Shown piece after piece: positions 218 to 6,751 of a DNA stretch of 6,751 nt. The stretch lies in the IMG/VR virus record IMGVR_UViG_2609459836_000001, one strand, 5' to 3'. The position numbers and the translations under genes were made by a program. The first letter of the stretch is position 1; every line of letters begins with the position of its first letter. The DNA is from a virus (Duplodnaviria > Heunggongvirae > Uroviricota > Caudoviricetes). The notes under the pieces were generated by a model. That model had not been told where the DNA came from. It ran no database searches and saw nothing but the letters and a program-made list of their open reading frames with translations.

Positions 218-489
218 GTATTCGTATCGAAATTGGCGAACGTTATGTCGTTACCAGTGACAGCTTTCAGTTTATTCTCCACGAGAAAAAGAGAGCGGAA
301 AGCGGTAAAAACGCCGGTCAGGAATGGCTGTCGGTGGTTGGTTATTACCCGAAATTAAGCCAGCTCGTTTCCGGCCTGATGCATCACGATATTCTGACCG
401 GAAGCGCAAAGTCTTTTGCTGATTTAAACGCGCAGGTTGAGCAACTCAGCAAGCGTTGTTCAGAGGCTTTTGGCTCATATGGCCGTTAA
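214..489 (+). CDS. small hypothetical protein of the P2 early replication operon (Orf83-like by position)
   Basis: 91-codon ATG-initiated ORF from the ORF track. It is coupled upstream by an ATGA overlap and overlaps the gene A start by 11 nt (A ATG at 479, this ORF's TAA at 487..489). The peptide is protein-like; function is unknown. Confidence 0.55.
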   Translation: MSIRIEIGERYVVTSDSFQFILHEKKRAESGKNAGQEWLSVVGYYPKLSQLVSGLMHHDILTGSAKSFADLNAQVEQLSKRCSEAFGSYGR

Positions 490-2764
490 AGCCTCCGGGC
501 GTTTTGTCCCTCCGTCAGCATTTGCCGCAGGCACCGGTAAGGCGTTTACCGGTGCTTATGCATGGAACGCGCCACGCGAGGCCGTCGGGCGCGAAAGACC
601 CCTTACACGTGACGAGATGCGTCAGGTGCAAGGTGTTTTATCCACGATTAACCGCCTGCCTTACTTTTTGCGCTCGCTGTTTACTTCACGCTATGACTAC
701 ATCCGGCGCAATAAAAGCCCGGTGCACGGGTTTTATTTTCTCACATCCACTTTTCAGCGTCGTTTATGGCCGCGCATTGAGCGTGTGAATCAGCGCCATG
801 AAATGAACACCGACGCGTCGTTGCTGTTTCTGGCAGAGCGTGACCATTATGCGCGTCTGCCGGGGATGAATGACAAGGAGCTGAAAAAGTTTGCCGCCCG
901 TATCTCATCGCAGCTTTTCATGATGTATGAGGAACTCTGCGATGCCTGGGTGGATGCGCATGGCGAGAAAGAATCGCTGTTTACGGATGAGGCACAGGCT
1001 CACCTGTATGGTCATGTTGCTGGCGCTGCACGAGCTTTCAATATTTCCCCTCTCTACTGGAAAAAATACCGTAAAGGGCAGATGACCACGAGGCAGGCAT
1101 ATTCTGCCATTGCCCGTCTGTTTAACGATGAGTGGTGGATTAGTCAGCTTAAAGGCCAGCGTATGCGCTGGCATGAGGCGTTACTGATTGCTGTCGGGGA
1201 GGTCAATAAAGACCGTTCTCCTTATGCCAGTAAACATGCCATTCGTGATGTGCGTGCACGCCGCCAGGCAAATCTGGAATTTCTTAAATCGTGTGATCTC
1301 GAAAACAGGGAAACCGGCGAGCGCATCGACCTTATCAGTAAGGTGATGGGCAGTATTTCTAATCCTGAAATTCGCCGGATGGAGCTGATGAACACCATTG
1401 CCGGTATTGAGCGTTACGCCGCAGCAGAGGGTGATGTGGGGATGTTTATCACGCTGACCGCGCCGTCAAAGTATCACCCGACACGTCAGGTTGGAAAAGG
1501 CGAAAGTAAAACCGTCCAGCTAAATCACGGCTGGAACGATGAGGCATTTAATCCAAAGGATGCGCAGCGTTATCTCTGCCGTATCTGGAGCCTGATGCGC
1601 ACGGCATTCAAGGATAATGATTTACAGGTCTACGGTTTGCGTGTCGTCGAGCCACACCACGACGGAACGCCGCACTGGCATATGATGCTTTTTTGTAATC
1701 CGCGCCAGCGTAACCAGATTATCGAAATCATGCGTCGCTATGCGCTCAAAGAGGATGGCGACGAAAGAGGAGCCGCGCGAAACCGTTTTCAGGCAAAACA
1801 CCTTAATCGGGGCGGTGCTGCGGGGTATATCGCGAAATACATCTCAAAAAACATCGACGGCTATGCACTGGATGGTCAGCTCGATAACGATACCGGCAGA
1901 CCTCTGAAAGATACTGCCGCGGCTGTTACTGCATGGGCGTCAACGTGGCGCATCCCGCAATTTAAAACGGTTGGTCTGCCGACAATGGGGGCTTACCGTG
2001 AACTACGCAAATTGCCTCGCGGCGTCAGCATTGCTGATGAGTTTGACGAACGCGTCGAGGCTGCACGCGCTGCCGCAGACAGTGGCGATTTTGCGTTGTA
2101 TATCAGTGCGCAGGGTGGGGCAAATGTCCCGCGCGATTGTCAGACTGTCAGGGTCGCCCGTAGTCCGTCGGATGAAGTTAACGAGTACGAGGAAGAAGTC
2201 GAGAGAGTGGTCGGCATTTACGCGCCGCATCTCGGCGCGCGTCATATTCATATCACCAGAACGACGGACTGGCGCATTGTTCCGAAAGTGCCGGTCGTTG
2301 AGCCTTTGACTTTAAAAAGCGGCATCGCCGCGCCTCGGAGTCCTGTCAATAACTGTGGAATGCTCACCGGTGGTGATACTTCGTTACCGGCTCCCACACC
2401 TTCTGAGCACGCCGCAGCAGTGCTTAATCTGGTTGATGACGGAGTTATCGAATGGAATGAGCCGGAGGTCGTGAGGGCGCTCAGGGGCGCATTAAAACAC
2501 GGCCTGAGAACACCTAATCGTCAGCAAAGAAACGGAAGCCCGTTAAAACAGCATGAAATAGCGCCATCGGCCAGACTGACCCGGTCGGAACGAATGCAAA
2601 TCACCCGTATCCGTGTTGACCTTGCTCAGAACGGTATCAGGCCGCAGCGATGGGAGCTTGAGGCGCTGGCGCGTGGCGCGACCGTAAATTATGACGGGAA
2701 AAAATTCACGTATCCGGTCGCTGATGAGTGGCCGGGATTCTCAACGGTAATGGAGTGGATATAA
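479..2764 (+). CDS. A: rolling-circle replication initiator endonuclease gpA (P2 gene A family, HUH superfamily)
   Basis: Long ORF; I place the start at the first ATG (479, MAVKASGRF...) rather than the in-frame TTG at 437 given in the ORF track. This gives 761 aa, the length I recall for P2 A. HUH motif H399-W-H401 (TPHWHMMLF) is at 1673..1681. The two-tyrosine motif GYIAKYISK puts Y450 at 1826..1828 and Y454 at 1838..1840, the residue numbers I recall for the P2 A active-site tyrosines. A possible AGAGG Shine-Dalgarno lies at 462..466. Confidence 0.9.
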   Translation: MAVKASGRFVPPSAFAAGTGKAFTGAYAWNAPREAVGRERPLTRDEMRQVQGVLSTINRLPYFLRSLFTSRYDYIRRNKSPVHGFYFLTSTFQRRLWPRIERVNQRHEMNTDASLLFLAERDHYARLPGMNDKELKKFAARISSQLFMMYEELCDAWVDAHGEKESLFTDEAQAHLYGHVAGAARAFNISPLYWKKYRKGQMTTRQAYSAIARLFNDEWWISQLKGQRMRWHEALLIAVGEVNKDRSPYASKHAIRDVRARRQANLEFLKSCDLENRETGERIDLISKVMGSISNPEIRRMELMNTIAGIERYAAAEGDVGMFITLTAPSKYHPTRQVGKGESKTVQLNHGWNDEAFNPKDAQRYLCRIWSLMRTAFKDNDLQVYGLRVVEPHHDGTPHWHMMLFCNPRQRNQIIEIMRRYALKEDGDERGAARNRFQAKHLNRGGAAGYIAKYISKNIDGYALDGQLDNDTGRPLKDTAAAVTAWASTWRIPQFKTVGLPTMGAYRELRKLPRGVSIADEFDERVEAARAAADSGDFALYISAQGGANVPRDCQTVRVARSPSDEVNEYEEEVERVVGIYAPHLGARHIHITRTTDWRIVPKVPVVEPLTLKSGIAAPRSPVNNCGMLTGGDTSLPAPTPSEHAAAVLNLVDDGVIEWNEPEVVRALRGALKHGLRTPNRQQRNGSPLKQHEIAPSARLTRSERMQITRIRVDLAQNGIRPQRWELEALARGATVNYDGKKFTYPVADEWPGFSTVMEWI
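2330..2349 (+). other. candidate rolling-circle origin (ori) nick-site region inside gene A
   Basis: In P2 the ori lies inside the A coding sequence and A acts in cis (established). The sequence GCGCCTCGGAGTCCTGTCAA contains a near-palindrome GGAGTCC and matches my unverified recollection of the P2 ori oligonucleotide. Its position about 1.85 kb into A is roughly where the P2 ori (about 89% of the genome) should fall. Low confidence. Confidence 0.3.
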
Positions 2765-2800
2765 TGGCAAAAATTCACGAGATCTTAGATAGTTTCGTAC

Positions 2801-2875: not shown

Positions 2876-4714
2876 ATGAGCGAGTTCGATGTTTTTTCTA
2901 TTTCAGTTGATGATTTTAAAAAAAGTGAGTACGCCAGTATATTGTTACCACCAAGAAGCCATTCTTATTTTGAAATGGAATCTTATTTTTTTCAGTTGTT
3001 GTTATTTTATAAGCAAAAAAAAGATGTGAGTTCTTGGAGGGTTTGCTATTTATTACGTTCGTTATTTAGTTTAAAATTTTCTAAGTCTGGTGATATTATC
3101 GACTTTGAGTCTAAAATCATTCTCTATCCTAAGCGAGGTTATAGACCTTCAGATTACAAGGATAATTATTTAACCATATTAACTTGTATTAAAGAAAATA
3201 CTGATAACCCTTATATTATATCTAGGGTGTGTGATGTTTTATGGATAAATAACCGTAAGGATATAGATTCTGCTAATAAAGCAATAGAGTCATATGCTCT
3301 AATGATTAATGATGCTTGTGATACTTTGTTAGAAAAAAAGGAATCAGGTGACATCCATGTTTTTGATGTTGTTGACTGCTTGGATAGAGGTATTACAATA
3401 TCGCGCATGCTTATTGGCAGGAAAAAACAACTGCAAGGAGGGATAGTTGACTCGACGTTAAGGCTATATCATATATTAATAGATTCTAGTATATTTATCG
3501 GTGTTTTAAGAATTTCTGAAATTCTTTATAAGAATAATTTATTGTGCCCCTTACAATTGGCTAAGAATGCAGAAAAGATAGCTGATGAGCATTGTGGAGC
3601 TTCTTATTTTGATGCTGTGAAAAAATTGTTTTATTTTGCGTCTGAATTATATGTTAAAAATGATATGGAAGAGCAAGGAAGAAGGTGCAAAATGAAAGCG
3701 ACAGAAATAACATTGGCTCAATTTGAACAGTCTTCATCTCCAACATTGAAGGCTCATTGGCTAAGAGTTGCTCTTGGGGAATTTAGAGCGATTGGTGGAA
3801 TGAGTGAAAGGATTAAAGAGATTAAAGAGGAATTAAATTCTATTCGAGATCAAATCAATGATGAAATGTATTCCTTTGCAATACCAATGGATCTTAGTGA
3901 TGTTATCGCTCAGAAAGAGCATATTTATAATCAATTAAATTTCTCAGAAATAATTAAAAAATTAATCTCTAGATTTAAGGTTGTAAGTGCCAGTGAGATT
4001 ATGGAAAGAGTTCGCTCTGATGCTAAGAGATATTTTTTTGTTAATGTGAGTGATACGGTTTTTTATGATGACAGAGGACGCGTTGTGGCAAGGCAACCAC
4101 CTTTAGATTCTGCTGGGGATATAAGTCTAGATGATGCCTGTGTAAATTATTTAAGAACTAGTAATATTGAGCATCAGTTTTATGTTTATGGTGAGTTTGA
4201 AGTTGTTAGGCAAAGAGTGTTGTCTAGGTATTCATTAAATGAGAATACATTTGACCCAATCTCACAACAAAGTCTATTTGTTCCTCCTGGGTATGCGGAA
4301 ATATTTTCTTTAGGATTTCTTAAGCTTTGGCAGGGGGATTATGTGTCTGCCTGTTATTTGTTGTTGCCGCAGTTGGAGAATTCAATTAGATGGATTTTAG
4401 AATTAAGAAGAAAAGAAACAACGAAAATAGATGTGTCACTTTTTGAGGAGGCTACTAGTCTATCTCAAATGCTTGCAAATTATAAGAGTGAAATGGAAGG
4501 TATTTTTGGGAGTGATCATGTATTGACTATGGATTTATTGTTCAATATGAAAGGTGGTGCTGCAATTAGACACACGATGGCTCATGGCAGGTATACTGTA
4601 AATCATTGTTATCAACCAACTTCAGTTTTTGCCTGTGTCTTTATCTTTTATTTAACTTGTTTGCCTTTATTTAGTGTATGGGAAGATAAAGTTGAACCTT
4701 ATCTGACTGATTAA
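2876..4714 (+). CDS. hypothetical 612-aa protein: horizontally acquired cargo in the A-to-cos variable locus; candidate anti-phage defence protein with possible C-terminal HEPN-like motif
   Basis: Uninterrupted 612-codon ORF with a strong Shine-Dalgarno. Base composition is visibly AT-rich (roughly one third GC by eye; not computed) against clearly more GC-rich flanks. No Walker A/P-loop is visible. An Rx4H motif (AIRHTMAHG, R565..H570) lies at 4568..4585 and a hydrophobic C-terminal segment SVFACVFIFYLTCLPLFSVW follows. I do not recognise the protein as tin, old or any named system. Confidence 0.8.
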   Translation: MSEFDVFSISVDDFKKSEYASILLPPRSHSYFEMESYFFQLLLFYKQKKDVSSWRVCYLLRSLFSLKFSKSGDIIDFESKIILYPKRGYRPSDYKDNYLTILTCIKENTDNPYIISRVCDVLWINNRKDIDSANKAIESYALMINDACDTLLEKKESGDIHVFDVVDCLDRGITISRMLIGRKKQLQGGIVDSTLRLYHILIDSSIFIGVLRISEILYKNNLLCPLQLAKNAEKIADEHCGASYFDAVKKLFYFASELYVKNDMEEQGRRCKMKATEITLAQFEQSSSPTLKAHWLRVALGEFRAIGGMSERIKEIKEELNSIRDQINDEMYSFAIPMDLSDVIAQKEHIYNQLNFSEIIKKLISRFKVVSASEIMERVRSDAKRYFFVNVSDTVFYDDRGRVVARQPPLDSAGDISLDDACVNYLRTSNIEHQFYVYGEFEVVRQRVLSRYSLNENTFDPISQQSLFVPPGYAEIFSLGFLKLWQGDYVSACYLLLPQLENSIRWILELRRKETTKIDVSLFEEATSLSQMLANYKSEMEGIFGSDHVLTMDLLFNMKGGAAIRHTMAHGRYTVNHCYQPTSVFACVFIFYLTCLPLFSVWEDKVEPYLTD

Positions 4715-4875
4715 TGGAAGTTGATTTAGGTATTTTGGCATTTATCTTTCTGCGTGCAATATGTGCATGGTTTTGCATGTGCCGGAGTTGCATGTTCCGG
4801 CCGTGCGTCCGCCAGAACGGGCGTGGCTCAAAAGCGGTATTGCACCTGCATTAAAAACACCCCATGAAGCGGGCG

Positions 4876-4894
4876 GGCGAGGCGGGGAAAGCAC
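4876..4894. other. cos site: 19-nt P2-type cohesive-end sequence GGCGAGGCGGGGAAAGCAC
   Basis: Exact match to the 19-nt cohesive-end sequence I recall for P2. It sits about 190 bp from the Q stop, in the same orientation and relative position as in P2, where Q is the first gene next to the left cos end. Confidence 0.7.
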
Positions 4895-5036
4895 TGCGCG
4901 CTGGCGGTGGTGCTGATTTTATTTTTTCAGCGTCTGAGCGCGTCGTGATGGCGTTTAGATTGTTAGCCGGGGCGTTGGTGTGTCTGCGGGCTGTTTTGTG
5001 CGGTGGTGAGCGTGTGAGGGCGTGATGGCGGGTTGT

Positions 5037-5063: not shown

Positions 5064-6098
5064 TCAGCCGTTGTCAGTGTCCAGTGAGTAGTTTTTAAAG
5101 CGGATGACCTCCTGACCGAGCCAGCCGTTTATCTCGCGGATCCTGTCCTGTAACGGGATAAGCTCATTGCGGACAAAGACCTTTGCCACTTTCTCAATAT
5201 CACCCAGCGACCCGACGTTCTCCGGCTTGCCCCCCATCAACTGAAAGGGGATGCGGTGCGCGTCCAGCAGGTCAGCGGCGCTGGCTTTTTTGATATTAAA
5301 AAAATCGTCCTTCGTTGCCACTTCACTGAGCGGGATAATTTTAATGCCGTCGGCTTTCCCCTGTGGGGCATAGAGAAACAGATTTTTAAAGTTATTGCGG
5401 CCTTTCGACTTAACCATGTTTTCGCGAAGCATTTCGATATCGTTGCGATCCTGCACGGCATCAGTGACGTACATGATGTATCCGGCATGTGCGCCGTTTT
5501 CGTAATACTTGCGGCGGAACAGCGTGGCCGACTCATTCAGCCAGGCAGAGTTAAGGGCGCTGAGATATTCCGGCAGGCCGTACAGCTCCTGATTAATATC
5601 CGGCTCCAGCAGGTGAAACACGGAGCCGGGCGTGAAAGGTGTCGGCTCGTTGAAGGACGGCACCCACCAGTAAACATCCTCCTCCACCCCACGGCGGGTA
5701 TATTTTGCCGGTGAGGTTTCCAGTCTGATGACCTTACCGGTAGTGCTGTAACGCTTTTCCAGAAACGCATTACCGAACACCAGAAAATCCAGCACAAAGC
5801 GGCTGAAATCCTGCTGAGAAAGCCACGGATGCGGGATAAATGTCGAGGCCAGAATATTGCGTTTGACGTAAATTGGTGAGCTGTGATGCACGGCAGCACG
5901 CAGGCTTTTTGCCAGACCAGTAAAGCTGACCGGTGGCTCATACCATCTGCCGTTACTGATGCACTCGACGTAATCCAGAATGTCACGGCGGTCGAGTACC
6001 GGCACCGGCTCACCAAAGGTGAATGCTTCCATTTTCGGGGCGCTGGCGGTCATTTTTTTTGCCGCAGGTTGCGGTGTTTTCCCTTTTTTCTTGCTCAT
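5064..6098 (-). CDS. Q: capsid portal protein gpQ (P2 gene Q family)
   Basis: 344-codon ORF, the same length as P2 Q by my recollection. It lies next to cos on the complement strand as in P2. Its start overlaps the stop of the upstream minus-strand ORF by 1 nt, the arrangement I recall for P2 P/Q. The translation reads as a globular phage structural protein. Confidence 0.8.
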   Translation of the reverse strand: MSKKKGKTPQPAAKKMTASAPKMEAFTFGEPVPVLDRRDILDYVECISNGRWYEPPVSFTGLAKSLRAAVHHSSPIYVKRNILASTFIPHPWLSQQDFSRFVLDFLVFGNAFLEKRYSTTGKVIRLETSPAKYTRRGVEEDVYWWVPSFNEPTPFTPGSVFHLLEPDINQELYGLPEYLSALNSAWLNESATLFRRKYYENGAHAGYIMYVTDAVQDRNDIEMLRENMVKSKGRNNFKNLFLYAPQGKADGIKIIPLSEVATKDDFFNIKKASAADLLDAHRIPFQLMGGKPENVGSLGDIEKVAKVFVRNELIPLQDRIREINGWLGQEVIRFKNYSLDTDNG

Positions 6099-6436
6099 CA
6101 GTAAAACTCCAGAATGGTGGATGTCAGCGGGGTGCTGATACCGGCGGTGAGTGGCTCATTTAACAGGGCGTGCATGGTCGCCCAGGCGAGGTCGGCGTGG
6201 CTGGCTTCCTCGCTGCGGCTGGCCTCATAGGTGGCACTGCGTCCGCTGCTGGTCATGGTCTTGCGGATAGCCATAAACGAGCTGGTGATGTCGGTGGCGC
6301 TGACGTCATATTCCAGACAGCCACGGCGGATAACGTCTTTGGCCTTGAGCACCATTGCGGTTTTCATTTCCGGCGTGTAACGGGAGTATTGCCTCCACAC
6401 TGGCGACGTCGCTGTCATTTGAAAAGCGTTACACGC
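6098..6436 (-). pseudogene. P: 3' fragment of terminase large (ATPase) subunit gene P; 5' portion missing
   Basis: A minus-strand frame ending in TGA coupled to the Q start is where the C-terminus of P should be. The frame is open only back to a stop at 6437..6439 (ORF track 6098..6418, 106 aa), whereas P2 P is about 590 aa. Sequence beyond about 6420 instead encodes a + strand ORF. Identity as P rests on synteny only. Confidence 0.45.
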
Positions 6437-6751
6437 TCAATGTCATTGTGACCGACTTTACCGGTGATTTTGACCTGCTCATCGTGCCGGTGCTGGCGTG
6501 GCTGCGGGAAAATCAGCCCGACATCATGACCACTGACGAAGGCCAGAAAAAGGGCTTCACGTTTTATGCAGACATCAACAATGACAGCAGCTTTGATATC
6601 AGCATCAGCCTGATGCTGACCGAGCGCACGCTGGTCAGTGAGGTGGACGGCGCGCTGCATGTGAAGAATATCCCGGAACCCACGCCGCCGGAGCCGGTCA
6701 CCCGCCCGATGGAGCTTTATATCAATGGCGAACTGGTGAGCAAGTGGGATG
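6349..6751 (+). CDS. partial + strand ORF running off the window; possibly a P2 late-operon tail protein (tentatively tail-completion gpR-like), true start undetermined
   Basis: The frame is open from just after TGA 6346..6348 to the window end. Translation ...NGSIASTLATSLSFEKRYTLNVIVTDFTGDFDLLIVPVLAWLRENQPDIMTTDEGQKKGFTFYADINNDSSFDISISLMLTERTLVSEVDGALHVKNIPEPTPPEPVTRPMELYINGELVSKWD is strongly protein-like. Orientation matches the P2 late operon O..S, but it is not scaffold gene O, which is what should follow P. The gpR assignment is an unverified recollection. Candidate starts are TTG 6355, GTG 6448 and ATG 6521. Confidence 0.35.

Follow-up and report, generated by a model that had tools for sequence, protein, structure and literature searches.

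HEPN domains were defined by Anantharaman et al. 2013 as four-helix bundles in which an Rx4-6H motif, with a polar residue (N, D or H) after the arginine, closes helix 3, often accompanied by a further acidic residue in helix 2 (Ex3[KR]) and typically by an insert that separates helices 2 and 3; a kinked helix 4 was reported for several of them, and their metal-independent endoribonuclease activity usually comes from a composite site in a dimer (PMC3710099). The same work described DUF4209 as a HEPN family prototyped by human C6orf70 (ERMARD), with a conserved motif and fusions to tetratricopeptide repeats (TPR), its bacterial versions being catalytically active or intact and the eukaryotic C6orf70 having one transmembrane (TM) region (PMC3710099). 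In P2-like phages, the hotspot between gpA and gpQ next to cos is occupied in P2 by old/tin and elsewhere by many other defence systems (PMC9122126). Here we analysed this hotspot in virus record IMGVR_UViG_2609459836_000001, a stretch of 6751 bp (the window) that makes up the complete E. coli draft-assembly contig JNQM01000052.1 and is part of a P2-like prophage, and its cargo gene, which encodes one 612-residue protein. A first-pass annotation of the DNA had flagged a possible HEPN motif followed by a hydrophobic tail at the C-terminus of this cargo protein. Our analysis indicated that the flagged stretch is probably the active-site motif and last core helix of a DUF4209/C6orf70-type HEPN domain carried as prophage cargo.

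The supplement of Rousset et al. 2022 lists the exact accession of the cargo protein (WP_042964140, NZ_CP030281) as 'hypothetical', ranks an 88%-identical relative, 'DUF4209', 55th among the P2 systems (76 occurrences), and places a paralogue from E. coli S88 at rank 13 of the P2 hotspot (193 occurrences) (PMC9122126). The clone of the paralogue, pFR103 'Putative HEPN', appears in Table S2B, which holds additional tested systems as opposed to validated ones, while WP_042964140 and the 88%-identical relative are absent from the tested systems as far as this supplement shows (PMC9122126). pFR103 shares with the cargo protein its slot, its full-length architecture and 33% identity over 603 residues, but it represents a different subfamily, with the motif LRHKLAHG in place of IRHTMAHG. 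Because DUF4209 was called HEPN in 2013 (PMC3710099) and the paralogue was cloned under that name in 2022 (PMC9122126), the HEPN reading is prior art for an already catalogued family, and the cargo gene is no new kind of system. Among public resources, RefSeq labels the protein merely 'DUF7380 domain-containing', an NCBIfam scan gave no match, and the protein matched phrog_5183 as well as the PDC-S39 hidden Markov models of PADLOC, the latter over its full length (residues 8-599; E 1.9e-73 and 5.4e-68). PDC-S39 is itself a computational candidate, for which we found no experimental validation in the literature.

The motif R565-H-T-M-A-H570 and the hydrophobic stretch lie exactly where the first-pass annotation had placed them, with R565 encoded by AGA at 4568-4570 and H570 by CAT at 4583-4585 (context GGAAIRHTMAHGRY). 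That annotation had cautioned that so short a motif may arise by chance, and the caution was justified for the string alone: the protein contains two Rx4H strings (RHTMAH at 565 and RYTVNH at 572), at least one such string occurred in 48% of composition-preserving shuffles of the protein, and the bare string is not significant. The stricter form R[NDH]xxAH occurred in 0.5% of the shuffles. Conservation decided the question. An exhaustive homologue search yielded 2164 representative relatives (E ≤ 1e-3), and conservation was scored in an alignment of 130 full-length homologues with 19-88% identity. A separate homologous-protein search, run a second time with this 130-sequence alignment, gave the same seven proteins and no further ones. 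The only invariant columns were R171, E501, R565 and H570, followed by the near-invariant R505 (129/130), G571 (127/130) and A569 (118/130), and residue 566 was H in 103 homologues, N in 25 and D in one. R505 was also invariant in a trimmed set of 41 domain sequences. Since R565 and H570, whose conservation the first-pass annotation had proposed as a check, are kept throughout the homologues, the Rx4-6H signature is real and above chance. The second string, R572...H577, was rejected as a chance occurrence, neither residue being conserved in the 130 homologues, and a second HEPN motif around the invariant R171 was ruled out, as the consensus has no conserved histidine after this arginine.

Structure prediction pointed the same way. 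AlphaFold2 modelled the whole protein with a predicted local distance difference test score (pLDDT) of 94.8 and a predicted template modelling score (pTM) of 0.85, and residues 410-612 alone with a pLDDT of 95.4 and a pTM of 0.91. The models predict the four-helix HEPN-type bundle that the first-pass annotation had suggested looking for, at high confidence and with helices 2 and 3 set apart by an insert. Helix 3 is modelled as residues 546-557 and 564-569, with RHTMAH at its end and a loop after it. The domain thus combines an Rx4-6H motif, a polar residue following the arginine, an Ex3[KR] motif and a bundle with insert, and because the positions of these motifs on the model helices agree with the published definition, the C-terminal domain is very probably a HEPN domain. 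The tabulated HEPN entries, with unlabelled values, are AF0298 (2hsb), 7.3; Csm6 (6tug, 8jbc and 5yjc), 6.8, 6.5 and 6.3; TTHA0636 (1wwp), 6.6; the HEPN toxins 8xdj, 5yep and 7ae2, 6.4, 6.4 and 5.6; HI0074 (1jog), 6.4; AbiA (8oz7), 6.3; YutE (1ylm), 6.2; the sacsin HEPN (3o10), 6.0; and LsoA and RnlA, 5.5 and 5.4.

Several results weigh against the assignment. With Foldseek, the domain model had no significant match in the PDB (best E 0.78). Searches of PDB sequences with the full-length protein and its profile found no HEPN, just insignificant bromodomain and TPR matches, and a search of PDB sequences with the profile of the C-terminal domain found no HEPN and one spurious match to a His-tag. 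In Pfam, the full-length protein did not match DUF4209 (PF13910) at E ≤ 1, and the isolated domain scored 14.7 bits (E 0.032, residues 500-587), short of the gathering cut-off of 22.3. With no significant structural match, no sequence-level tie to solved HEPN proteins and Rx4H strings so frequent by chance, the likeness in motif and fold might be coincidental, and the C-terminus might be a generic bundle of helices that has a structural or protein-binding function but lacks nuclease activity. Set beside the conservation of R565 and H570 and the fit of the motifs to the HEPN definition, such a coincidence appears highly improbable.

The link to DUF4209 came from the homologues. Homologue P0006 (49% identity) matched the Pfam model with 26.1 bits and homologue P0007 (28% identity to the cargo protein, E 2e-70, 98% coverage) with 25.4 bits, in both cases over residues 499-594; DUF4209 was found at the aligned position in 62 of 72 full-length homologues, and all 41 trimmed domains matched it at E ≤ 10. 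As in DUF4209/C6orf70 proteins, the match to PF13910 in these homologues spans helices 2 through 4, the Rx4H motif is kept and TPR-like repeats are fused to the domain. The cargo protein differs from the DUF4209 models in that it falls below the Pfam threshold on its own, and from C6orf70/ERMARD in that it is prophage-borne, whereas ERMARD is an endoplasmic reticulum-associated eukaryotic protein; the two are likened via the family. A distant DUF7380 plus DUF4209 homologue in a metagenome-assembled genome of Ca. Binatus soli (L011:5944-8265) carries an extra C-terminal DUF29 (E 2e-45), a fusion absent from the other relatives examined.

The first-pass annotation had also noted a resemblance to Abi-type HEPN families. 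Its HEPN part held, but membership of an Abi-named family did not: the cargo protein was unmatched by the Pfam and PADLOC models of Abi_2/AbiD-F, AbiU2, AbiV, AbiJ and AbiA-CTD, and its family is DUF4209/C6orf70 and no Abi-named one. Likewise, no sequence relationship to MNT-associated HEPN toxins, Csm6, RnlA/LsoA or the AbiA C-terminal domain was detectable. Unlike characterised HEPN RNases, the cargo protein comes without a cognate antitoxin or MNT gene, a CARF domain or a reverse transcriptase, and its HEPN domain is presumably regulated by its own N-terminal repeats.

For the hydrophobic stretch SVFACVFIFYLTCLPLFSVW (residues 583-602; 4622-4681), the first-pass annotation had offered two possibilities, a membrane anchor or a buried helix. 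It is the top 19-residue hydrophobic window of the cargo protein, and its Kyte-Doolittle value of 2.17, the maximum among the 130 proteins of the family, exceeds the usual TM cut-off of 1.6 and would be enough to set off a simple TM predictor. This value, the location of the segment 10 residues from the C-terminus, the '1 TM' label given in the hotspot table of Rousset et al. 2022 to both the 88%-identical relative and the paralogue, both DUF4209 systems (PMC9122126), and the single TM region of eukaryotic C6orf70 (PMC3710099) would all suit a tail-anchored protein, in which residues 583-602 span the inner membrane and hold a nuclease or sensor there on the cytoplasmic side. The relatives and the models speak against such an anchor, which we consider improbable. 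The aligned segment stays below 1.6 in 96 of the 130 proteins (median 1.41), has one or more charged or His residues in 122 and R or H at position 592 in 94; specific residues are conserved in a way unlike a simple anchor, namely Y585 (117 of 130), C587 (104), W588 (114), a proline at P597 (106) and W602. Both AlphaFold2 models pack the segment as helix 4 (pTM 0.91, pLDDT 97-98), and a HEPN bundle without it would be one helix short. A conserved TM-length segment outside the globular fold was not found among the 130 proteins, the cargo protein being hydrophobic enough and 96 of its relatives not.

On the basis of the low hydropathy in most relatives, the charged or His residues, the conserved specific residues and its modelled place as helix 4, we concluded that residues 583-602 are predicted to form a buried core helix of the HEPN domain and no membrane anchor. 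The conserved proline at position 597 fits the kinked helix 4 of several HEPN domains, and the '1 TM' labels of the P2-hotspot DUF4209 systems most likely reflect this hydrophobic helix. Together, homologues and models point to a soluble TPR-plus-HEPN protein with an apparently intact catalytic set (E501, R505, R565, H566 and H570), which offers clear mutagenesis targets and corrects a weak annotation that consisted of DUF7380 only in RefSeq, missed DUF4209 in Pfam and gave '1 TM' in the published table. Coordinates of these features and of their surroundings are collected in Table 1.

Table 1. Features of the cargo gene, its protein and the hotspot borders (positions in the window)
Feature	Position	Strand	Basis or remark
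gpA, P2-type replication endonuclease, left hotspot border	479-2764	+	Pfam Phage_GPA; locus L001 (99.9% identical) has it as 'replication endonuclease'
Promoter-like site TTCTCA-16-TATAAT, 5' of the cargo gene	2738-2765	+	Consensus match only
Cargo open reading frame, 612 aa	2876-4714	+	Single-gene DUF7380 + DUF4209 (HEPN) protein
DUF7380 region, aa 8-184	2897-3427	+	Pfam PF24098, E 8.7e-26
TPR/SNAP-like alpha-helical repeat region, about aa 96-330	3161-3865	+	Includes invariant R171
C-terminal HEPN domain, DUF4209/C6orf70 type (very probable), aa 466-612	4271-4711	+	
E501-N-S-I-R505, Ex3[KR] motif on predicted HEPN helix 2 (489-510)	4376-4390	+	E in 130/130, R in 129/130
Insert separating helix 2 from helix 3, aa 511-545	4406-4510	+	Model: beta-hairpin 516-526 and short helices
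R565-H-T-M-A-H570-G571, Rx4H catalytic motif closing helix 3	4568-4588	+	Conservation and model helix 564-569
Predicted HEPN helix 4, aa 581-611	4616-4708	+	One helix in the model, pLDDT 97-98
P2 cos 19-mer GGCGAGGCGGGGAAAGCAC	4876-4894	+	Exact match; 162 bp 3' of the cargo stop
gpQ portal protein, right hotspot border	5064-6098	-	Pfam Phage_portal; 'phage portal protein' in L001

The N-terminal two-thirds of the cargo protein consist of TPR/SNAP-like helical repeats and DUF7380, which was present in 72 of 72 homologues scanned with Pfam; the repeats are presumed to be the sensor or regulatory part. Within the DUF7380 region, residues 87-171 (3134-3388) contain the near-invariant R87, D93, R117, D120, W123 and Y140 in addition to the invariant R171, a set conserved as strongly as the HEPN catalytic residues, and it may bind a ligand or trigger or touch the HEPN active site.

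The gene occupies the P2 hotspot as its sole occupant. Between gpA and gpQ and beside cos, it stands out as an AT-rich island (GC 0.30-0.37, compared with about 0.53 on either side), with a good Shine-Dalgarno sequence, GGTGAGGA, 3 nt ahead of the ATG at 2876, and the island ends before 4839, where P2-like backbone homology resumes. We take the string GGCGAGGCGGGGAAAGCAC to be the P2 cohesive end. The content of the slot is variable among relatives, other P2-like phages carrying there a Fic protein, MORC plus Dcm, a cytolethal distending toxin or a DUF4209 paralogue, and the cargo island itself is rare among complete E. coli genomes (21 of 5426). In Escherichia phage vB_EcoM-569R9 (L002:3279-5210), the same gpA-gpQ slot holds a paralogue with 33% identity and matching architecture. 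The homology that this locus shares with the window is interrupted at 2731 and 4839, which indicates that divergent family members were swapped at one hotspot. Like the cargo gene, P2 old/tin lie in the cos-proximal gpA-gpQ position as prophage-borne cargo, there used against competing phages (PMC9122126); the proteins themselves are unrelated to the cargo protein.

No neighbour of the gene was conserved among ten distant loci (from Enterobacter, Yersinia, Sphingomonadales, Ca. Binatus and a cyanobacterium), of which four lie beside phage, relaxase or Fic genes and six among housekeeping genes. Because no neighbour is conserved across these loci, the cargo protein appears to act alone. A type II toxin-antitoxin partner of the HEPN-MNT kind was not found adjacent to the gene, as the island is single-gene and the neighbours differ in 10 of the 10 distant loci. 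Small open reading frames at 4742-5025 were considered as an antitoxin and rejected, since they lie mostly in or beside the conserved cos-region backbone, which starts again at 4839 and is common to P2-like phages with other cargo. In the P2-like prophage of Enterobacter sp. ECC-219, a DUF2971 gene (L003:7852-8763) follows a 52%-identical homologue on the same strand inside the hotspot; it may be a second cargo gene, one that the window does not contain.

The P2 hotspot, the AT-rich island, the PDC-S39 match and the four distant loci beside phage, relaxase or Fic genes together place the cargo gene in a defence context, and the invariance of its catalytic-type residues argues for an active enzyme. 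From this we infer RNase activity and an anti-phage function, both with lower confidence than the domain assignment. By analogy with characterised HEPN RNases, the domain would be a metal-independent endoribonuclease in which H570 may serve as general base, assisted by R565, H566 and E501, and it would probably become active on dimerisation. The N-terminal repeats would keep the HEPN domain silent until an infecting phage supplies the trigger, and the ensuing RNA cleavage would halt growth of the infected lysogen, amounting to an abortive-infection-type exclusion of competing phages. A more far-reaching and less likely possibility is that the cargo protein works as an active abortive-infection RNase made of a single chain, with a TPR-like N-terminus that recognises a specific phage product; DUF7380-DUF4209 proteins would then constitute a validated defence system whose HEPN module is common to human ERMARD/C6orf70, and the '1 TM' entry, possibly with the TM region of C6orf70 too, would be the buried helix 4, a reading examined on the bacterial protein only.

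A domain with the HEPN fold could also serve ends other than anti-phage defence, as a prophage addiction module or toxin, in regulating host or phage RNA while P2 runs through its life cycle, or as an effector in the conflict between P2 helpers and P4 satellites. The pFR103 paralogue was among the tested systems not validated as defence in an eight-phage panel (PMC9122126), no RNase assay or biochemical data were found in the literature for any DUF4209 protein, and these results tell against the proposed abortive-infection RNase; the candidate status of PDC-S39, the six distant homologues among housekeeping genes and the cytolethal distending toxin in the same slot of other P2-like phages add to the case for a non-defence role. 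However, validated defence systems are strongly over-represented in the hotspot (PMC9122126), the invariant catalytic-type residues point to an active enzyme, and many defence systems are phage-specific, so the negative result with eight phages is weak evidence. Overall, a role outside defence seems unlikely to us. If phage restriction were demonstrated, the PADLOC candidate would become a defence system, and the protein would offer a tractable bacterial counterpart for studying human ERMARD's HEPN domain, which is uncharacterised.

Beyond gpQ, the window retains of the terminase ATPase gene just a C-terminal fragment of 85 aa (6098-6355, minus strand), which directly abuts a gpR-like tail-completion gene (6355-6751, plus strand), whereas in intact relatives such as L001 a full terminase is followed by the head genes. 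This junction reflects either a deletion of the head/lysis module, in a defective prophage that kept its cargo, or a join made in assembly where P2 sequence is repeated, and it is also present in three draft assemblies (L013-L015).
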